Part shown: piece by piece, positions 1-9,244 of the stretch
Numbering within the stretch: the first letter of the stretch is position 1
Layout of the letters: each line of letters starts with the position of its first letter
NCBI GenBank assembly: GCA_965200315.1
Contig: OZ241362.1
Location: forward strand, 768,001 to 832,000
Direction: 5' to 3'
Source of the DNA: Candidatus Latescibacterota bacterium
GTDB lineage: Bacteria; Latescibacterota; UBA2968; UBA8231
Length of the DNA: 64,000 nucleotides
Notes under the pieces: model-generated
Databases searched by the model: none
Told to the model about the DNA's origin: nothing
What the model saw: only the letters and a program-made list of their open reading frames with translations
Made by a program: the position numbers and the translations under genes

Positions 1-73
1 GGACTTCGGCCGGCGTTACTTCGGCGATTTCGGCCTTTACGCTCTCTAATAGCTGATTAGATGTAACAGTCAT
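1..73 (-). CDS. 5' part of a gene running off the window, probably a rhodanese-domain / MoeB(MoeZ)-like sulfur-transfer protein
   Basis: ATG (71-73) overlaps the iscS TGA (ATGA). It reads MTVTSNQLLESVKAEIAEVTPAEV, resembling the N-terminus of rhodanese-MoeB fusions. Only 24 codons are visible. Confidence 0.5.
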   Translation of the reverse strand, partial: MTVTSNQLLESVKAEIAEVTPAEV

Positions 74-1251
74 ACTCGCTCCTCGATTGCTAATGCACAG
101 TCGCGCACCTGCGCGACCTGCGCGACCATGCAGTCGATGGCAAATTCCACTTCTTCCATACTATTAAAACGCCCTAACCCAAAGCGCAGAGAAGCTCGCG
201 CCAAATCATCGCTTGCGCCGATGGCTTTGAGGACGTGCGAGGGTGCGCTCGTCCGCGATGAACAAGCCGCACCCGAAGACAACGCGATCTCCCGCAATCC
301 CAAGAGCAGCTCGGTTCCGTCCACCCCAGGAAAGCTCACGTTGAGATTGCCCGGCAGGCGTTCTTCCGCGTGACCATTGACGACCAAGGGGCCAAGCGCA
401 GCCTCTAGCCCGGCGCACAACCGCTGCCGCATCTGCACCAGCCGCGCCGCTTCCGCGGGCATTTCCTCGCGCCCCAACTGACAGGCACGCCCTAAACCGA
501 CGATGCCCGGCACGTTGAGGGTGCCGCCACGCAGGCCGCGCTCCTGTCCGCCGCCCTCGACTTGGGCCTGCAAGCGCACGCGCGGCTTGCGCGAGCGCAC
601 GTAGAGGAAACCGACGCCTTTGGGAGCGTAGAGCTTGTGGCCGGAGGCCGAGAGCAGGTCAATGCCGAGCGCCTCTACATCGAGCGGCACCTTGCCAACG
701 GCTTGGGCTGCGTCGCAGTGCCACAAGACGCCGCGCTCGCGGGCCAATCGCCCAATCGCCGCGAGCGGTTGCAAGACCCCAATTTCGTTGTTGGCGGCCA
801 TGAGCGAGATGAGGGCCGTCTGCGGCGTGATGGCCGCCGCGAGCTGGCCGAGGTCAATCTGACCGTAGCGGTCCACAGGTAAATAAGTTACCTCCACCCC
901 TTGTTTTTCCAAGGTGTGGCAACACTCCAAGACGGCCTTGTGCTCAGTGGCACAGGTGATGATATGCGCTTTAGGGGGCACCATCTGCACCGCGCCTTTG
1001 ATAGCCAAATTGTTGGCCTCTGTAGCTCCGGCCGTAAAGACGATCTCCTGAGTGCGCGCACCGATTAACCCGGCCACCTGTTCCCGCGCCTTGTCGACCG
1101 CGGCGGCGGCGGCCAAACCAAAGGCGTGGGTCTTGCTAGACGCATTGCCGAAGTGCGTACCAAAGTACGGCAACATGTCCGCCAAAACGCGCGGGTCCAC
1201 CGGCGTGGTGGCCATATTGTCCATATAAACTGGAATTTGCACGACCGTCAC
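70..1251 (-). CDS. iscS: Cysteine desulfurase (IscS/NifS group I)
   Basis: Motifs YMDNMATTP, FTAGATEANN, HCDAAQ, PLP-lysine SGHKLYAPKG and catalytic SSGAACSS. Confidence 0.95.
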   Translation of the reverse strand: MTVVQIPVYMDNMATTPVDPRVLADMLPYFGTHFGNASSKTHAFGLAAAAAVDKAREQVAGLIGARTQEIVFTAGATEANNLAIKGAVQMVPPKAHIITCATEHKAVLECCHTLEKQGVEVTYLPVDRYGQIDLGQLAAAITPQTALISLMAANNEIGVLQPLAAIGRLARERGVLWHCDAAQAVGKVPLDVEALGIDLLSASGHKLYAPKGVGFLYVRSRKPRVRLQAQVEGGGQERGLRGGTLNVPGIVGLGRACQLGREEMPAEAARLVQMRQRLCAGLEAALGPLVVNGHAEERLPGNLNVSFPGVDGTELLLGLREIALSSGAACSSRTSAPSHVLKAIGASDDLARASLRFGLGRFNSMEEVEFAIDCMVAQVAQVRDCALAIEERV

Positions 1252-1575
1252 TCAGGCACTGAAGGACTCACCGCAGCCGCAGGTGGTGCGGGCGTTGGGG
1301 TTTTCAATTTTAAAGCCCGCACCCATCAACCCGTCTTGGTAGTCGAGGATTACGCCGTTGAGATAAAGGCTGCTCTTCATGTCGATGAAGACCTTGACGC
1401 CGGCGATCTCAAAGACATGGTCCATGTCGCCGGCACCTTCCTCGAAATCGAGCTTGTATTGGAACCCTGAACACCCCCCCCCCATCACGCCCATGCGCAG
1501 CCCATGCCCCTCGTTGCCCTGTTCGCCGAGCAAGTCCCTGATCTTCTCGGCTGCCGCTTCCGTTATAGTTACCAT
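1252..1575 (-). CDS. iscA: A-type Fe-S carrier (HesB/IscA/ErpA family)
   Basis: MVTITEAAA start, GGGCSGFQY and C-terminal CGCGESFS; start trimmed to the ATG at 1575. Confidence 0.93.
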   Translation of the reverse strand: MVTITEAAAEKIRDLLGEQGNEGHGLRMGVMGGGCSGFQYKLDFEEGAGDMDHVFEIAGVKVFIDMKSSLYLNGVILDYQDGLMGAGFKIENPNARTTCGCGESFSA

Positions 1576-1586
1576 ATTGTATCCCC

Positions 1587-2048
1587 TCAAGATTCGTAAA
1601 TGGCGCATTCGATGAGGTCGGGAACCTCGTCGTGCCGCCGATAGACCTCGCAGTGGTGACAATCCCGCTCAACGACCTTGACCGTACAGCAAAAACAGCC
1701 ACTGAGAATTTCAATGGCCCGCCGGTTCCGCTCCTTCATCAGCGAATACTGGCGAATGCGCTCGTCGATCCGACGCTCTTGCTCGGTGAGGTGCTCGACG
1801 AGCTCGCGCGCCAAGCCGCCGCCCGACTCGTTGTAGTGCTTCAGGTTGAAGAACACGCGAATGTGCTCTAGATCGAACCCCAAATTTTTGAGGCTTTGGA
1901 CGATTTGCAAACGGCGCAATTGCGCTTCCGAATACAGGCGGAACCCGCCGGTGGTGCGCTCTTCTGGCTCGACGATTCCCAGTTCTTCATAGTAGCGAAT
2001 CGTGCGCGGTGTGACCCCGGCCTTGGCGGCCAAATCCCCTATTTGCAT
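1587..2048 (-). CDS. MerR-family transcriptional regulator with Cys-rich C-terminus
   Basis: MerR HTH IGDLAAKAGVTPRTIRYYEELG...GGFRLY, coiled coil, then CFCC-x8-CHHC-x14-C. Confidence 0.92.
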   Translation of the reverse strand: MQIGDLAAKAGVTPRTIRYYEELGIVEPEERTTGGFRLYSEAQLRRLQIVQSLKNLGFDLEHIRVFFNLKHYNESGGGLARELVEHLTEQERRIDERIRQYSLMKERNRRAIEILSGCFCCTVKVVERDCHHCEVYRRHDEVPDLIECAIYES

Positions 2049-2081
2049 GGAGGCATCCTTCGCTGCGAAGTTCTGGCAAGC

Positions 2082-2110
2082 AATGTACTTGACGTGAACG
2101 TAAGTGTCAA
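2082..2110 (-). promoter_or_regulatory. Sigma70-type promoter of the merR-iscA-iscS operon with an overlapping palindromic operator
   Basis: Minus strand TTGACA (2110-2105), 17 bp, TACATT (2087-2082). Contains TTGAC...GTCAA (2089-2110) and an inner ACGT-N2-ACGT. Confidence 0.7.
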
Positions 2111-2197
2111 TGAATCAACCACACACAAGCCTCTTATCCTATATTCTATTAAAATATGTCAAGCCAACATCTCCGAAAGAGCGAGGATATAAGCGCA

Positions 2198-2758
2198 ATG
2201 ATCGCATGCATTGCATTCTGTCTAGTCTGGTTGACCACTCCCCTAGCGGCTACTACAGTCCAGCACTTCAACCTAGCGGCCTTGACTGCCAACTCCGAAC
2301 GCATCGTCGTCGGGGTCTGCCGCCAAGCCCAGCCCCAATGGGTGCGCGGGCAGATCTATACCCGCTATGTGTTCTCCATCTCCCAAGCCATCAAAGGGCC
2401 AGCGACCACGCAACTGGAATTGCACCTGCCCGGCGGACATCTGCAAGACACTGTTACCCGCATCGTCGGCATGCCCATCTTCGTCCCGGGGGATGAAGCC
2501 GTGCTCTTTCTCACCGCGGCAAACGCATTGGGACACTCTTGGCCGGTCGGACTCGCTCAAGGACGCTTCGCCATCAAGCGCAGCACAACCAACAGCCCAC
2601 GCGTCTTTCAAGAGTTAGACGGACTTGCGCTGCACACCGAGCCACACAGCGCCCCCAAAAAGGCACCGCCCGACGAACCCGTCCAAGGTATGCCGCTCGA
2701 TCAGTTTTTGGCGCGGGTGCGCACCCTGACCGAAGCCCAAACACCCGATGCGTACTAG
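2198..2758 (+). CDS. Secreted hypothetical protein (possible propeptide or partner of the downstream protease)
   Basis: Hydrophobic signal peptide MIACIAFCLVWLTTPLAA; overlaps the next start codon. Confidence 0.75.
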   Translation: MIACIAFCLVWLTTPLAATTVQHFNLAALTANSERIVVGVCRQAQPQWVRGQIYTRYVFSISQAIKGPATTQLELHLPGGHLQDTVTRIVGMPIFVPGDEAVLFLTAANALGHSWPVGLAQGRFAIKRSTTNSPRVFQELDGLALHTEPHSAPKKAPPDEPVQGMPLDQFLARVRTLTEAQTPDAY

Positions 2759-5246
2759 CAGCTTACTGCTTGGCTGCCTGATCGTCGCCATGCCTAGCCA
2801 CGGCTTTCTCATCCAGACCTTTGAATCCCGGTTTGGCAACCAAGTCCAGCAGAGCTGGCGCCACCCCGACCGCATTCCCTTTGTGCTCCACGCCGCCGGT
2901 TCCGACGACCTATCCCCTGCTCAGACCCATGCGTTGCTCCGCGAGAGTTTTCAGGTCTGGAGCAACGTACCTACGGCACGGGTGAATTTTGTCGATCAGG
3001 GCACAATCCGCAACGTCCCAACCCAAGGAGATGGGCGCAACCTGATCTACTTCGACGAGACAGGACGCTATCTGGACGCCCCGCCCGAGGCCGGCGTCAT
3101 TGCCATAACCCGCATCCAGTCCCATTCTGCGACCGGCCACATCACGGACGCGGACATCATCTTTAACGGGCGCGATTTCCGCTTTTCCGCTAGCGACGAC
3201 AGCGGCAACCTCAAAGACGTGGCCGTCCACGAAATCGGCCACCTGCTCGGGCTTGAACACACCCCGCTCGACGGCCCCCCGCCTATCCGCCCCACCATGA
3301 CCCCCTTCAACCACAGTGAAGCGCAAAGCCTCGAACCCGATGACATCGCTGGCGTCAGCTTCCTCTATCCGGCCGTTGGCTACCAAGACAGCGTCGGCAG
3401 CATCGCCGGCCAAGTCCGCAACTTCGACCAACAGCCACTCTTCGGCACCCATATCAAGGCCGAAAACCTCGACACCGGCGAACTGTTCAGCACCGTCTCG
3501 GGTGCCGACCCAAGCTCCGTTACGGTCGGCCACTACCGGCTGCACGGCTTGACGCCGGGCCGCTACCGCCTGAGTCTCGCGCCCATTGCCGGGGCGATTA
3601 ATGAAGAGAACTTCGGCGGTGTTTTCACTGATTTTGCCACTGGATTCCCCGCGGAGTTCTACGACAACGACCACGACCACACCTACGCCCGCGTCCTCGA
3701 CTTGGCCGCTGCCCAGCACATCGGCGATGTCGATTTCATCTCCGATTTTGCCGTCCCCGGCTATCCCTTCGTCCTCCCCATAGCCCTGCTCACCAACACC
3801 CCCGATACCCAAGGCCCTTATCCAGTGCGCGTCGCAACCCGCGATGCTGTCATCGCGTGGCTCCTCTATCAGGTTGACGGCAGGAACACACAGCGCCTGC
3901 AAATGCAGCCGCAAGACAGCCTCTTCGTCGCCCAAATTCCCGGCCAGCGCACTGGCACGCGCATCGCCTATCAACTCGAAGCCCACGGTGCCGACGGCAA
4001 GGTCTCGTACTTTCCCTATGCGGACGCTTGGCTCGACTTCACGGTCGTCGAACTGACCGGAGCCCCACTCGCCTTTACCGCCTTGCGCGGCGACGATGCC
4101 ATCGGCGTGGTCGATACAGGTACCCGCCGCGAGCTAGCGCGCATCCCCGTCGGCGACGAGCCGATCCAAATGATCCTAGCCGGCGACCAACTCTTCGTGT
4201 CCAACCTCTCATCGAACGATCTCCGCATCATCGACACCGCGACCTTCCAAGTCCAAGCGCACATCGAGACCGCGGTCCAGCCCCTCGACCTAGCCCTTGC
4301 ACCCGACGGCAAAACGCTCTACGCGACCAACTCGGGCGCGAATGCGCTGACCATCGTCGATGTTGAGTCGGGCCAAGTGCGCACCGTTGAGATCGCCAAC
4401 GCGGGTGAAGGACTGTACGGCATTGCCGCCACGACCGACAAGATATTCACCACCGACATCGCTGGCAGCCAAGTCCTCGTCCTCTCGCCGCAAGGCCGCA
4501 TAACCGGCCGCATCCCAGTGCCAGCGAAACCGCGCTCGCTTGCCCTCGCACCCGATGGCAAGACGCTTTATGTAACCAGCATGGACACGGGCCGCTTGAC
4601 TGCCATCGACGCCGACGGCGCAACCGTCGCGCACACCATCGACTTAGGCGTCAGCGGCACCTTTGCCATCGCGGCCAGCCCCGACGGCCGCAAGCTCTAT
4701 TCGACCGCGTATCGCGAAGGCGCCCTCCTAGTCGTCGATGCGGCCAGCGGAACCCTGCACAAAAAGCTCGCCATAGGCCGCAATCCACGGGCCATTGCCT
4801 TCGCGCCCGACGGTACGCAGGCGTACGTCACCAGTTCCTTTTCCAATGAGATCCACATCGTCGATGCCGTGCGCGACTCCGTTGTCGGCCACTACGCAAC
4901 CGGCCAGAATCCCCGCGGCATCGCGCTTACCCAGCCGGTTCGGCCCACGACTACAGTCCGACATCCCACCCACTTCTCCCTAGCACCAACCTTCCCCAAC
5001 CCTTTCAACGGCTCGACGCAAATCACCTACACACTCGCCGCCGAGACCCCGGTCGAGCTCCACGTGTACAACGCCCTCGGCCAAGCCGTGCGCACTCTTT
5101 TGCGTCAGCAGCGGGCGGCGGGGACGCATCGGATTTATTGGGATGGAAAAGACGATCAAGGACGGGCGCTGGCCAGCGGCACCTACTTGCTCATCATGCG
5201 CGCCGGCGCGGTGCACCAAACGACGAAGATGTTACTCCTGCGCTGA
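2748..5246 (+). CDS. Secreted matrixin-like (M10) metalloprotease with YVTN beta-propeller and C-terminal FlgD-Ig/T9SS-like domain
   Basis: Signal peptide; HEIGHLLGLEH plus Met-turn (PTM); repeated xxPDGKTLYV blades; FPNPFN...YNALGQ...WDGKDDQG...SGTY...TKMLLLR. Confidence 0.88.
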   Translation: MRTSSLLLGCLIVAMPSHGFLIQTFESRFGNQVQQSWRHPDRIPFVLHAAGSDDLSPAQTHALLRESFQVWSNVPTARVNFVDQGTIRNVPTQGDGRNLIYFDETGRYLDAPPEAGVIAITRIQSHSATGHITDADIIFNGRDFRFSASDDSGNLKDVAVHEIGHLLGLEHTPLDGPPPIRPTMTPFNHSEAQSLEPDDIAGVSFLYPAVGYQDSVGSIAGQVRNFDQQPLFGTHIKAENLDTGELFSTVSGADPSSVTVGHYRLHGLTPGRYRLSLAPIAGAINEENFGGVFTDFATGFPAEFYDNDHDHTYARVLDLAAAQHIGDVDFISDFAVPGYPFVLPIALLTNTPDTQGPYPVRVATRDAVIAWLLYQVDGRNTQRLQMQPQDSLFVAQIPGQRTGTRIAYQLEAHGADGKVSYFPYADAWLDFTVVELTGAPLAFTALRGDDAIGVVDTGTRRELARIPVGDEPIQMILAGDQLFVSNLSSNDLRIIDTATFQVQAHIETAVQPLDLALAPDGKTLYATNSGANALTIVDVESGQVRTVEIANAGEGLYGIAATTDKIFTTDIAGSQVLVLSPQGRITGRIPVPAKPRSLALAPDGKTLYVTSMDTGRLTAIDADGATVAHTIDLGVSGTFAIAASPDGRKLYSTAYREGALLVVDAASGTLHKKLAIGRNPRAIAFAPDGTQAYVTSSFSNEIHIVDAVRDSVVGHYATGQNPRGIALTQPVRPTTTVRHPTHFSLAPTFPNPFNGSTQITYTLAAETPVELHVYNALGQAVRTLLRQQRAAGTHRIYWDGKDDQGRALASGTYLLIMRAGAVHQTTKMLLLR

Positions 5247-6185
5247 CTCTACTGATCCGACAAACCCATCGACACTGAAATAGCGGAATCCCGTATCGCA
5301 AAGCATGGTCACCAGCCGGGCCTCCGGGCCCAGAGCACTGGCCACCTGCAAACTGGCCGCCACATTGGCCCCAGAAGAAGGCCCCAACAGCAACCCTTCC
5401 TCGCGGGCTAAGCGGCGAGTGCAGTGAAACGCCTCGTCGTCGTCTATCTGCACGATCTGGTCAATCAATTCCCGGTCGAGGACTTCTGGCACAAAACCCG
5501 CGCCAATCCCCTGAATGCCGTGCAAGTCGGCTGCGCCCCCCGCCAGCACGGGCGAGCGCTTAGGCTCGACCGCTACTATACGCACGTCCGGCACGGCCTG
5601 CTTAAGCACCTCCCCAACGCCGGTTATGGTGCCGCCAGTCCCCACTCCGGCGACAAAGGCGTCCAACTCGCCTCTGGTGGCCGCGAGGATTTCCTCGGCC
5701 GTGGCCCGGCGATGGGCCTCCGGGTTGGCCGGGTTAGCAAATTGCTGGGGAATAAACACGCCTGCGGGATCGGCCGCCTTCATCTCTTCGGCCCTGCGGA
5801 TGGCCCCGACCATGTCTGCGGCCGCCGGCGTCAGCACTATCTCTGCGCCGTAACTAGCCATGACTTGTCGCCGCTCCAAACTCATGCTCTCGGGCATGGT
5901 CAGCACCAGTCGGTAGCCTAGTACGGCCGCGGCGAGAGCCAGTGCGATTCCGGTGTTGCCGCTGGTAGGCTCGACGATGGTCATGCCCTTTTTGAGCTGG
6001 CCAGTCGCCTCGGCGGCGCGGATCATGCTAACGCCGATGCGGTCTTTGACGCTGCCGGTTGGGTTGCGCGCTTCGAGCTTGCCGTAGAGCTGGCTGCCGT
6101 TGGCCGGCGCGACTCGGTAGAGGCGCACGAGCGGCGTGTCCCCCACCAACTGCAACATATCGTCTGCGGTCTTGCGCTTGCTCAT
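5232..6185 (-). CDS. cysK: Cysteine synthase A
   Basis: [45 protein letters not shown]; start trimmed to MSKRKT. Confidence 0.93.
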
Positions 6186-8242
6186 CCCTCGGCCTTTAGC
6201 TGCTCCGCCAACTCTGCGGCCGTGGACAAGGGCCGCGAGCAGGTCGCGTCGCGACACACGTACGCCCGTCCACCGACGGACAGCTTCCCCTCTAGGAGCG
6301 GCAACGCAGCTTCGGCTTCATCCGCCCCAACGCCGGCAGCCAACACGACCTTATTGGGCACAAAGCACCGATGCAGCGCGGCCGCAAAAGCGCGGCACTC
6401 GGCTTGGTCTCCCACCAAGGCAACCTCCGTGGGCCTAGTCAAGTAGAAGTCGAGGGCGCAGAGCATCTGCGCTCCAGCGGAAGGGGCACGGCGCAATAAC
6501 TGCTCAAAGAGGACGAGGGTCTGCTCGCCCTGCTGCCACAACGCCTGATCGCCCTTCATCGCCCCCAAGCGCAACAGCACCAAAGCACCCAGCGAGTTGC
6601 CCGAGGGCGTGGCGTTGTCAAACGGGTTCTTGGTGCGCACGATCAAGTCGGTCGCCTCGGCCCCCGCATAGAAAAATCCTCCGCGCTCCCCATCCCAAAA
6701 CCGCGCAACCATGTCGGCGGCCCAGTGCTCGGCGGCGACCAAGAAGCGCAACTCAAAACTCGCCTCATACAGGTCGAGCAAGCCGTTGACCAAACCAGCG
6801 TAATCGTCCTGATAGGCCGGAATCCGCGCCCGACCATCCTTGTAGGTGTGCAGGAGACGGCCGTCGCAGACCATGCGCTCCAAGATGAAGTCGGCCGCCT
6901 CGACCGCCGCTCGTAGGTAGCGACGCTCCCCGATAACCTGATAGGCGCGGGCCATCGCGCTGATCATCAGCCCGTTCCAAGCCGTCAGGATTTTGTCGTC
7001 GCGCCCGGGGGCCACGCGCTCCTGCCGCACCGCCAATAGCACCGCGCCCCCGCGCTCTACGACTTGTGCCAGCCGCTCCGGCGCTACCTTGAGCAAGCGC
7101 GCAACGCCCTCTAGTTCGTTTTCCACGTGCAAGATATTGCGCCCGTGCTCGAAGTTGCCCTCGGGCACAACGCCGTAATAGCGGGCAAAGAGCGCGGCAT
7201 CTTCTTCGCCCAACAGGGCCTCAATGTCCTCCAAAAGCCAAGTAAAAAACAGACCTTCTTCGCCCTCGCTGTCCGCGTCCTGCGCCGCGTAGAAGCCACC
7301 TTTGGGCTGCGTCATCTCGCGCAGCACGTAGCCGAGGGTGTGCTCGACGACCTCGCGGTAGAATTCGTCTTGAGTCGCCTGATAGGCTTCGAGATACGTC
7401 CACACCAACAAGGCGTTGTCGTAGAGCATTTTCTCAAAGTGGGGCACGAGCCAGCGCTCATCCACCGAATAGCGGTGAAAACCCCCGCCAAGCTGGTCGT
7501 ACATCCCTCCCCTAGCCATGCGCTTGAGCGTGTGCTCAGCGATTGCCAGCGCGCGTTGGTCTCCTCGTCTAACATAGCGCCGCAACAGCAGGGACAAGCT
7601 CATGCTCGGCGGAAATTTAGGCGCACCGCCAAATCCGCCAAACCTATCGTCATACGTGGATTTGAGCTGCGCACAGGCTCCGTCGAGGACCTCTTCTCCG
7701 GGAACGCTGCCCGGCGTCAAAAACTCGGCGTGCTGCTGGAGTGCGCGCATCAGTTCAGCGTTTTTTTCGGCGACGCCAGCGCGATTTTCCCGGTAGTAAT
7801 CCGCTATCGCTTGCAGCACCCGCGGAAAGCCCGGCCGCCCATAGCGATCTTCGGGCGGGTAGTACGTCCCGCCGTAAAAAGGCTGCAAATCCGGCGTCAG
7901 AAACACCGTCATCGGCCAGCCTCCTTGGCCGGTCATGGCCTGCACGGCCGTCATGTAAATCTCATCGACATCGGGCCGTTCTTCGCGATCAACCTTAATG
8001 TTGATAAAGTGCTCGTTCATGCGCTGGGCGATTTGCTCGTTTTCAAAAGATTCGCGCTCCATGACGTGGCACCAATGGCAGGCCGAATACCCCACTGAAA
8101 GCAAAATGGGCCGATCGGCGGCCCGGGCCGCGGCCAGCGCTTCCTCGCCCCAAGGATACCAATCGACGGGGTTATGGGCGTGCTGGCGCAAGTACGGGCT
8201 GGATTCGTTGGCGAGGCGATTGGTGTGCTTGGGATCAGACAT
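6182..8242 (-). CDS. Thioredoxin-domain + six-hairpin glycosidase-like protein (YyaL/SSP411 family)
   Basis: [61 protein letters not shown]; the true start lies inside the longer 1020-aa ORF. Confidence 0.92.
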
Positions 8243-8292
8243 GGTATTAATAATACGATTCACTAGCCGTTGGCGATAGGGTGCGGGCGGTC

Positions 8293-9244
8293 CTATTGAC
8301 CGCACACCTGAAGGTAGTCTTCTAGCTCGCCGACGATGGCGCGGAAGCACCGCTCGGCCTCGGCGCGGATGTCCGCCCTCTCGCGGCGGCAGTGCAGGGG
8401 CCACACCTGCTCCCGATAGCACCTTTCGAGGGCATCCTGATAGGCCGAGGGTAAGGCCGCAATCTGCAATGCGCGAATTTCCGCCAAAGCTGATATTCGG
8501 CGTACCCACTCCGTTGGCGTAAGCGGCGATCTGCTCGCGACCCAGCCGCGTCTTAAAAAAAACCAAACGTAAAACGGATTGAGCCCCTCCAAGCGCTTCT
8601 GGCGGCTTGCTGCGGCGCAAGACAACCAAGGCCGTCTGCACCTTGTCGAAGGCTTTAGGCAGAGCGACGACCGCCCGCACCTCAGCGCACGCTAACAACC
8701 AGTCGCGCTCGGCCTGCCGCCGGGCATTGGCGAGGAAGCCCTCGGGCAATATCAGGGCCATCCAACCAGCGGGCCGGGTCAGTTGCAGGGCGCGCTCGAC
8801 AAAAAGCAACTCCACCGGGAAGGAGCGCACCTGCTTTTGTCCATCGAGCAGCCCAAAGCGCCGGGCGAGCCGACAGGGATCATCGGCCCCAAACAAGGGC
8901 AACATCGGCCCCAATTTGCCAAAAGGCGGGTTGGCCAACACGCAATCGAACGACTCGTCCGCCACCTCGGGAAAGGTGCCGAGCAAGCCGTCTCCGGTAT
9001 AAAAGCGATCGGCCTGACTGCGCCCCCGCTCGGCTAACCCCGCGTCAATCTCAATGCCTGTGGTCTGATAGGCTCGCCCGACAACACCCAACAACGCCCC
9101 TTCGCCCGCTGCTGGCTCAACCACGCGCGCTCCAGCCCCCAACTCTTTTCCCGCGAGCGTGCGCACCGCGTCCCAAACCAACTGCGCTACTGCCGGGGGT
9201 GTAAAGTGCTGCGCTAGAATTTTCGCGTTTCCTCCGTTACTCAT
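8293..9244 (-). pseudogene. Degenerate N6-adenine DNA methyltransferase with a remnant HsdS/TRD-like C-terminus
   Basis: QHFTP, motif I VEPAAGEG, motif [15 protein letters not shown]. The C-terminal TRD-like segment is split between two frames. Confidence 0.7.

Follow-up and report, generated by a model that had tools for sequence, protein, structure and literature searches.

A four-cysteine MerR-family protein as a candidate repressor of a sulfur-relay operon and a distant sigma-factor gene in Latescibacterota

Gene organization of the merR locus

The window analyzed in this study is a 64,000-nucleotide stretch (G000:C1:768001-832000) of the genome of a Candidatus Latescibacterota bacterium, which is contained in a single 5.36-Mb contig, and the analysis concerns positions 1-2110, where a gene for a MerR-family protein with a cysteine-rich tail heads a series of four genes, all on the minus strand, as read from the open reading frame (ORF) listing and the sequence. 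The merR gene (1587..2048) encodes a protein of 153 amino acids (aa) with an N-terminal MerR helix-turn-helix, a long dimerization helix and the cysteine-rich tail. It is followed by genes for a 107-aa A-type iron-sulfur (Fe-S) carrier resembling IscA/ErpA (1252..1575; Cys35 and a C-terminal CGC), a 393-aa class-V (group I, IscS/NifS-like) cysteine desulfurase (70..1251; GTG start and an SSGAACSS loop) and a rhodanese-MoeB/ThiF adenylyltransferase/sulfurtransferase, of which the first 24 codons lie within the window (1..73) and whose 395-aa reading frame ends outside it at G000:C1:766886. Pfam and NCBIfam searches identified, in gene order, MerR_1/MerR/MerR-DNA-bind, Fe-S_biosyn, Aminotran_5 and Rhodanese plus ThiF domains. 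On balance, it seems probable that the MerR protein represses its own operon together with a distant gene for a stress sigma factor through a dyad operator, and that this repression is relieved by a change of state at four conserved cysteines, with a bound Fe-S cluster as the favored cofactor.

A first-pass annotation of the same DNA had described the four genes as tightly coupled, and the sequence bears this out: merR is separated from the iscA-like gene (ATG at 1575) by an 11-bp gap (1576-1586), the GTG of the desulfurase gene (1251) abuts the iscA-like stop codon, and the start of the rhodanese-MoeB gene at 73 overlaps the desulfurase stop codon in an ATGA (73..70). Reading beyond base 1, as that annotation had proposed, completes the fourth gene with its rhodanese and ThiF/MoeB domains and places trmB next (TIGR00091, 153.6 vs. 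a cut-off of 112.65; scores and model cut-offs are given in this form throughout). An mraZ-rsmH-ftsL-ftsI-murE-murF-ftsW cluster, read from translations, comes next after trmB.

A genome scan with one genome per species retained 80 loci (designated by L numbers), 12 of which carry full-length merR orthologs of 61-97% identity. The merR-iscA-iscS-rhd/moeB-trmB order and strand are kept in 11 of these 12 loci, and in the twelfth (L006) the contig ends inside iscS. Within the phylum, a hit at 1e-15 was obtained in 105 of 168 genomes, and full-length orthologs, with an identity of 52% or more, are confined to the window's own family (64/75 genomes). This conservation partly reflects shared ancestry, because the wider synteny is also kept. 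Divergent from merR lie genes for a 200-aa protein with no Pfam match (window 2156-2758, plus strand) and for an 832-aa protein that combines a metzincin-type motif (HEIGHLLGLEH) with repeats of YVTN-like beta-propeller sequence (2748-5246, plus strand), both syntenic with merR in 11 related loci, and a gene for a 341-aa PALP-family (cysteine-synthase-like) protein with an N-terminal extension (5232-6257, minus strand) is kept close to the operon in each of the 12 orthologous loci.

A putative sulfur-relay module

The operon contains no iscU, hscBA or fdx, which distinguishes it from the canonical ISC operon (iscRSUA-hscBA-fdx). The A-type carrier matches PF01521, TIGR00049 (126.1 vs. 58.8) and, closer to the limit, the ErpA model NF010147 (118.5 vs. 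117), and its translation has the three conserved cysteines in GGGCSG and the C-terminal CGC. The desulfurase matches PF00266 with 279.6 bits and falls below the equivalog cut-offs for IscS (508.7 vs. 548) and NifS (459.9 vs. 530.75). The fourth protein consists of an N-terminal rhodanese domain (PF00581) and a C-terminal ThiF/MoeB domain (PF00899); it passes PRK08762 (534.7 vs. 449), its residues 5-386 aligning with positions 3-384 of the 387-position profile. No other ThiF-family E1 enzyme encoded in the genome scores strongly (284.6 bits vs. 46.8 for the second-best hit). Three ThiS/MoaD-type carriers are encoded elsewhere, one next to MoaE, one next to a molybdopterin oxidoreductase, and one flanked by genes for a JAB protease and a PALP enzyme in a Mec-CysO-CysM-like arrangement. 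A second locus of the Mec-CysO-CysM-like type is found at about G000:C1:552,000-555,000. Because no second strong E1 is encoded and the loci for MoaD-MoaE and for Mec-CysO-CysM-like proteins are located elsewhere, the operon most plausibly forms a sulfur-relay module rather than a canonical ISC system, as the first-pass annotation had also surmised. In such a relay, persulfide from the desulfurase would be passed to the rhodanese domain, the MoeB domain would adenylate and thiocarboxylate MoaD and CysO, and the A-type carrier would ride along.

Other genes for Fe-S assembly are found elsewhere in the genome, namely two of the SufB/D type and one for a SufS-type desulfurase (the best Aminotran_5 hit, 506 bits). 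A NifU_N (SufU/IscU) gene (at 3902254) adjoins that for SufS, and a second one is located at 315944. Approximately 500 bp beyond SufS/SufU lies a gene for an Rrf2-family regulator that passes the Rrf2 superfamily model and scores below the IscR cut-off. The suf region (L089, G000:C1:3886001-3905500) is split, with the SufB/D-type genes (487 aa and 597 aa) about 9 kb apart and separated by large genes that are unrelated to them; a sigma-54 activator domain further downstream is distributed over two overlapping ORFs of L089 (17882-18412 and 18354-19115), which may reflect a frameshift or an assembly error.

DNA near-identical to L002 7400-12500, which corresponds to window 1-2500 and the preceding 2.6 kb, is present in one DNA run labeled as a sponge metagenome, from which the window's DNA may itself derive, and in three metatranscriptome libraries of the same study. 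The region from trmB through merR is covered in one contig in the three RNA libraries, which agrees with expression but is not proof of transcription. RNA-library contigs break near L002 7950-7955 and resume at 8182-8481 where the DNA run is continuous, and the contigs show neither strand nor start; this gap was not used as an operon boundary, since it comes from one study and from contigs only. At L002 11053, all four runs (DNA and three RNA) differ by a T-to-C change.

The cysteine tail of the MerR protein

The tail of the MerR protein, ...SGCFCCTVKVVERDCHHCEVYRRHDEVPDLIECAIYES, has the pattern CFCC-x8-CHHC-x14-C and contains cysteines 118, 120, 121, 130, 133 and 148. A word-indexed search returned 468 homologs at E <= 1e-5, the named ones from metagenome-assembled genomes labeled Latescibacterota or Gemmatimonadota, and the window protein was aligned with 45 of the 120 listed matches, hand-picked across 56-90% identity. 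All 46 aligned sequences have C118 and C133, and conservation of C121 and C130 is 90% or higher; at position 120, N, R, S or L is often found, and several homologs have S, F, Y or H instead of C148. Since C120 and C148 vary, the conserved unit is CxxC-x8-CxxC (hereafter the Cys4 motif; codons at 1650..1697, minus strand). The six-cysteine tail on which the first-pass annotation had built is present as such, and its conserved part is limited to C118, C121, C130 and C133; with this restriction, the tail is a conserved candidate sensor site, as had been suggested. The motif occupies the metal-binding-loop position at the end of the alpha5 helix. The start of alpha5, where divalent-metal sensors have a cysteine, reads ESGGG in this protein, and the motif is followed by a conserved hydrophobic tail (VPDLIECAIY, or LPxxhxxhh).

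Membership of the MerR family is clear from PF13411 (70.6 vs. 21.6), PF00376 (53.6 vs. 28.2) and PF09278 (29 vs. 25.4). The protein reaches none of the NCBIfam equivalog models of characterized MerR proteins: the best partial matches are to ZntR (75.3 vs. 143) and CueR (70.6 vs. 147.4), and the models for CadR (55 vs. 151.45), MerR (62.3 vs. 150.85), SoxR (TIGR01950, 41.7 vs. 116.9), HspR (NF047375, 49.5 vs. 105) and NmlR (NF041849, 48.9 vs. 175) are likewise missed. The CX2CXCX5C cluster motif of SoxR is absent from the window protein. Some of the MerR homologs carry a precomputed PF28507 match.

A first AlphaFold2 model, built from 46 close sequences, resolved the tail poorly, with the predicted local distance difference test (pLDDT) score falling from 76 to 45. 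A second model from 74 diverse sequences reached a pLDDT of 94.7; these sequences were chosen by the motif, so that the invariant cysteine columns of their alignment are circular. In this model, alpha5 comprises residues 76-120, C118 and C121 lie at its end, C130 and C133 are located on short helical turns, and the last helix spans residues 144-150. Foldseek and a second fold search returned only MerR-family folds and no match specific to the tail. The closest matches among solved structures are a Listeria protein of the MerR family (Z 13.6) and HiNmlR (5d8c/5e01; Z 12.8, root-mean-square deviation 2.7 A over 122 residues), with CadR and CueR also among them and SoxR at Z 10.3.

Promoter and operator of the merR operon

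Upstream of merR, a consensus scan identified a -35 hexamer TTGACA (2105..2110, minus strand) and a -10 hexamer TACATT (2082..2087, minus strand), an architecture also present in orthologous loci. With 10 of 12 consensus matches, TTGACA-17-TACATT is the best -35/-10 pair among spacers of 15-20 bp, and a spacer of 17 bp also characterizes the best pair in 9 of 11 subfamily promoters (that of the window and 8 of 10 distant ones); the remaining two have no pair above threshold. An over-long spacer of 19-20 bp, at which MerR activators untwist promoters (PMC11672702, available sections), was found neither at the window promoter nor at the subfamily promoters examined.

The entire 17-bp spacer is filled by a candidate operator, CTTACGTTCACGTCAAG (2088..2104, minus strand), which matches a dyad shared by the subfamily. 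In the upstream regions of the orthologous genes, a strict palindrome screen (at least 8 matches, at least 75%) gave nothing and a looser one gave only weak dyads; the operator emerges clearly only when distant members of the subfamily are compared, for which 140 nt upstream of merR were taken. Related dyads occur upstream of the four-cysteine merR genes in L147, L029, L124, L125, L128, L129, L130, L133, L014 and L024, and the subfamily consensus is CTTwACGT-N1-2-ACGTwAAG. The dyad of L147 is a perfect 24-bp palindrome (TACTCTAACGTTAACGTTAGAGTA); others read ACTTTAACGTTACGT(C/T)AAAGT (L125, L130 and L133), AACTTTAACGTAACGTCAAAGTT (L124), CTTGACGTAACGTAAA(G/A) (L128 and L130), CTTGACGTTTACGTTAAAG (L129) and CGTTAACGTCATAACGTTAACG (L029). 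In six Planctomycetota loci (L023, L137, L139, L140, L043 and L081), no clear dyad was seen in the 140 nt taken as upstream, and the true starts may lie further upstream. Among loci of the window's family, an ACGT-N1-2-ACGT core is present at most 150 nt upstream of merR in 32 of 42, and L011-L013 carry a variant, ACGTCACTTGACGT, downstream of the -10 hexamer.

A distant sigma-factor gene and a third site

Across the 5.36-Mb genome, the pattern TnACGTnnACGTnA occurs at only three sites, all of them promoter-proximal: the merR promoter, 2265569-2265582 and 1981831-1981844. These three have the lowest local GC content (0.36-0.45) among 54 sites matching the looser ACGT-N1-2-ACGT; the other 51 lie in a GC-rich context with unmatched flanks, and strict full-arm CTTN...NAAG dyad patterns gave no genome site beyond the three.

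The site at 2265569-2265582, CCTTAACGTGAACGTAAAAG, lies 4 nt after the -10 hexamer of a TTGCGC-N17-TATGTT promoter (read by eye) that precedes a gene for a 281-aa sigma-70-family protein with regions 1.2, 2, 3 and 4 (G000:C1:2264694-2265536, minus strand), located outside the window and 1.5 Mb away. The best partial matches of this protein are RpoS, RpoD and RpoH, all below the cut-offs. Of 30 close loci, 27 have the motif at most 200 nt upstream of the sigma ortholog, and in two of the remaining three the upstream DNA is cut short; among 20 regions taken from genera of the family that are more distant, 15 also have it upstream of the sigma gene. Six sigma factors encoded next to merR homologs (five from sister families and that of L014) all find the operator-bearing sigma factor as their best hit in the window genome, by narrow margins, for example 231 vs. 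217 bits. A sigma paralog of 58% identity is encoded at 3152101-3152904.

The third operator-like site, AAACTGACGTTGACGTTAAG (G000:C1:1981831-1981844), lies 7 nt after a TATATT and directly upstream of a gene for a 411-aa MpaB/Lcp_cat-like protein (PF09995), which is a possible third member of the predicted regulon.

Breadth of the four-cysteine subfamily

A search of 1.84 billion representative proteins with the 46-sequence profile gave 55,325 hits at E <= 1e-3, that is, the MerR family at large. Among the best 150 representatives, 103 have CxxC-x7-10-CxxC near the C-terminus, 90 of them with exactly x8, and several of those without the motif are fragments or have CxxC...CxxxC. The look-alike protein clusters are dominated by Planctomycetota, Spirochaetota, Chloroflexota and Bacillota, and the database names are generic products of automatic annotation (MerR, ZntR-like or CueR-like). 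The window protein has both features that define the subfamily, CxxC-x7-10-CxxC after alpha5 and the dyad at its own promoter, and by these marks it is a member of a multi-phylum, apparently unstudied four-cysteine subfamily. Some members (P0143, P0151, P0156, P0158, P0160, P0185 and P0229) are 234-273 aa long with an extra N-terminal part before the MerR-Cys4 module, and their profile matches fall into two segments.

The gene neighborhoods of 13 distant loci were annotated, with 141 ORFs in all. A cysteine desulfurase gene lies directly downstream of the merR homolog in three Planctomycetota loci (L023, L043 and L081); in L029 (Bacteriovoracaceae), the homolog heads a gene for a NUBPL/Mrp-type Fe-S carrier ATPase; in L024 (Thermoleophilia), it precedes a gene for a CCG/Fer4 protein; in L014, it is followed by a sigma-70-family gene and then by a rubrerythrin gene; and in the other seven, the neighbors are unrelated or unannotated. 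In a sample of 301 Planctomycetota genomes, 13 contain a homolog, which is followed by a desulfurase gene in five loci, one of which (L136) is the same place as L023. In another of the five, L147, which represents a distant branch, the desulfurase that follows is 57% identical to that of the window. Of 12 loci fetched from sister families within the window's class, six were annotated, and a gene for a 273-320-aa sigma-70-family protein is directly downstream of merR in five of them (L124, L125, L129, L130 and L133); in the sixth, L128, the homolog heads sufB-sufC-sufD, with an IscS-like match further on. Genome G037, from the same class, contains two four-cysteine merR paralogs, that of L128 and that of L129, the latter also near moaA and an Aminotran_5 gene, and offers a natural case for separating both roles. 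No efflux or metal-resistance gene was seen beside any homolog examined (orthologous, distant and sister-family loci), nor was a chaperone gene seen beside any homolog in the annotated distant and sister-family loci. As to the link between such homologs and Fe-S or sulfur genes that the first-pass annotation had expected, Fe-S genes do recur beside them, but most annotated homologs lie elsewhere and the sigma gene is the best conserved predicted target.

Proposed mechanism and alternatives

Gene order, motif conservation, the operator and the promoter geometry are read from the sequences, whereas binding to DNA, the direction of regulation and the identity of the cofactor are inferred. In the model that we consider most likely, the MerR protein binds the 18-bp dyad CTTwACGT-N1-2-ACGTwAAG in two main places, the spacer of its own strong promoter and the DNA just downstream of the -10 hexamer of the sigma gene. 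Binding would repress merR-iscA-iscS-rhodanese/MoeB-trmB by negative autoregulation, an operon predicted to mobilize cysteine sulfur for MoaD/CysO thiocarboxylate pathways and to supply an Fe-S carrier, and would also repress the RpoS/RpoH-like stress sigma factor. Repression is suggested by the 17-bp spacer, the near-consensus hexamers and the position of the dyad over the start region at the sigma genes. A change of state of the Cys4 site would lift repression, and by analogy with SoxR, IscR, RisR and SufR, the loss or oxidation of a bound Fe-S cluster is the favored trigger. That the site holds such a cluster is our preferred assignment of cofactor, held tentatively and with somewhat less than even confidence, because the site sits where SoxR holds its cluster, because homologs recur beside suf, nifS-like, mrp and isc-like genes, and because regulators of Fe-S assembly such as RisR (PMC9973013, as far as its accessible text goes) and SufR sense through their own cluster.

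The same protein, operator and repressor role would also accommodate a Cys4 site that binds Zn(II) and acts as a thiol-disulfide switch of the RsrA/Hsp33 kind, in which oxidants or electrophiles oxidize both CxxC pairs, zinc is released, and the sigma factor and the sulfur/Fe-S repair genes are freed. This zinc-thiolate/disulfide switch is nearly as likely as the Fe-S cluster, which leaves it a real yet doubtful possibility: it fits the sigma target and the NmlR-like fold, the CxxC-x8-CxxC spacing with each CxxC at a helix end in the AlphaFold2 model suits zinc, the thiol-based sensor HiNmlR is among the nearest solved folds, the most conserved target is a stress sigma-factor gene, and in L014 the homolog is followed by genes for a sigma factor and a rubrerythrin. 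The repeated location of homologs beside Fe-S assembly genes (suf, nifS-like and mrp), as is seen for regulators whose own cluster is the sensor, argues instead for the cluster. A purely structural zinc, with the signal coming from a chaperone or partner titrated by stress as DnaK acts on HspR, is improbable. HspR is itself a MerR-family repressor encoded in the operon that it represses, the link to an RpoS/RpoH-like sigma gene would suit such a scheme, and the conserved hydrophobic C-terminal tail could be a docking element; however, the HspR model is missed (49.5 vs. 105), the dyad is unlike the inverted repeat bound by HspR, chaperone genes were not seen beside the annotated homologs, and four invariant cysteines at the canonical sensor-loop position suggest more than scaffolding.

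Far less probable still, and hardly tenable in our view, is that this MerR protein is either a master regulator of Fe-S metabolism in place of IscR/SufR, as the first-pass annotation had supposed of IscR, or a classical activator responsive to Zn, Cd or Cu. The protein does head an operon with iscA and iscS, its best partial NCBIfam matches are ZntR and CueR, and some homologs are labeled ZntR- or CueR-like. Replacement of IscR is contradicted by the separate SufB/SufS/SufU locus with its adjacent Rrf2 regulator, at which the genome scan found no operator-like site. A metal-responsive role is at odds with metal-sensor cut-offs missed by what we grade as a factor of at least 2, with the lack of efflux or metal-resistance neighbors among the homologs examined, and with a spacer of 17 bp instead of 19-20 bp.

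Several observations weigh against a cluster-sensing autorepressor centered on Fe-S and sulfur genes. The window site (2104..2088) departs from the dyad consensus at two left-arm positions. The core is absent upstream of merR in 10 of the 42 family loci, mostly from more distant genera, so that autoregulation may not extend to the whole family. Among the predicted targets, it is the sigma-factor gene and not an Fe-S gene that is best conserved, and most annotated four-cysteine homologs are not beside Fe-S genes (for example, L015, L018, L019, L022, L050 and L072). The Rrf2 regulator beside SufS/SufU is a conventional candidate for Fe-S homeostasis. Two CxxC pairs with about 8 residues between them are typical, too, of zinc sites with a structural or redox role, and MerR proteins and RNA polymerase can share a spacer on opposite faces of the DNA, so that occupancy need not mean occlusion. 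Finally, related genomes are not independent, and the within-family counts overstate the support.

With these points in mind, it is tempting to speculate, with considerable doubt, that the four-cysteine MerR proteins constitute a third, phylum-spanning class of cluster-sensing Fe-S/sulfur regulators beside the Rrf2 type (IscR/RisR) and SufR. The holo-protein, with an Fe-S cluster on CxxC-x8-CxxC, would then repress from the dyad at normal 17-bp promoters, and loss of the cluster under oxidative stress or a shortage of iron or sulfur would release the isc-like, suf, nifS and mrp genes together with a general stress sigma factor.

Comparison with known systems

MerR-family proteins are best known as activators that distort the DNA of long-spacer promoters. 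As judged from the sequences, what is new in the subfamily is the combination of its own sensor motif (Cys4), its own conserved operator, normal 17-bp promoters and different targets. Unconventional and redox-sensing MerR proteins, namely CoaR, MliR, NimR, SoxR, NmlR and AdhR, were surveyed in Chemical Reviews in 2024, and the available sections of that survey do not name the CxxC-x8-CxxC type (PMC11672702). The full-text literature searched, from which subscription journals are mostly missing, contains no CxxC-x8-CxxC MerR protein and none that controls isc/suf/nifS or a sigma gene; MerR control of a rhodanese-E1/desulfurase module is likewise not reported in the searched texts, and the word "MerR" does not occur in PMC11559095. 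A prior description of a four-cysteine MerR protein may exist in subscription journals, which lie largely outside this search.

SoxR is similar in that it has the MerR fold, with its four ligand cysteines in the loop after the dimerization helix of one subunit, and in that it controls soxS in a two-tier cascade, as the window MerR is predicted to control a sigma gene. SoxR activates at a long-spacer promoter. By contrast, the promoter of the window merR has a spacer of 17 bp, and the operator is also found downstream of a -10 hexamer. The cysteine spacing differs too, being CIGCGCLSxxC over 12 residues in SoxR (PMC11672702, available sections) and CxxC-x8-CxxC over 16 residues in the window MerR. 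The likeness to NmlR/AdhR extends to the nearest solved folds (HiNmlR) and to a short C-terminal region with sensing cysteines. Like the NmlR operator, the dyad of the subfamily has an 8-N2-8 arrangement that starts with CTT and ends with AAG. NmlR has one or two cysteines in place of the CxxC-x8-CxxC quartet. It controls aldehyde and alcohol dehydrogenase genes (PMC11672702, available sections).

The predicted role as a repressor, the control of its own operon and the stress regulon bring the window MerR near HspR. HspR is a MerR-family repressor that does not activate by DNA distortion, controls its own operon and governs a stress regulon. HspR is not known to have a Cys4 motif; its operator is different, and the predicted targets of the window MerR are a sigma gene and sulfur/Fe-S genes, not chaperone genes. 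As for the sulfur-relay genes themselves, the operon resembles the pairing of a MoeZ/MoeBR-type E1 enzyme with an IscS-type desulfurase, since its fourth gene joins ThiF/MoeB to rhodanese and adjoins the desulfurase gene, and MoaD-MoaE and Mec-CysO-CysM-like loci are present. In MoeZ, the rhodanese domain is C-terminal, whereas here it is N-terminal (PRK08762 type), and the MoeZ model PRK07878 is missed (423.8 vs. 647). The arrangement gives a concrete reading of how sulfur may be supplied to the MoaD and CysO pathways in the window's lineage.

Regulators of Fe-S assembly in the cited literature, as far as its accessible text goes, belong to the Rrf2 family (IscR and RisR) or are SufR, and sense through their own cluster; holo-RisR, for example, represses isc and suf (PMC9973013). 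Like these regulators, the window MerR is encoded as the first gene of, or adjacent to, an operon for Fe-S assembly or sulfur mobilization, is predicted to act by negative autoregulation, and has a cysteine-rich site that could report cluster supply. It differs from them in its MerR fold and family, in its operator, and in a predicted sigma target, and an Rrf2 protein is encoded at its own suf locus in the same genome. The predicted targets of the subfamily link a stress sigma factor with Fe-S and sulfur genes, and its members are found mostly in uncultured phyla, among them Latescibacterota, Planctomycetota and Bdellovibrionota. The proposal is directly testable with a 153-aa protein, an operator defined to the base and four named cysteine codons, and, if true, it would add a new type of sensor and a new regulatory logic.

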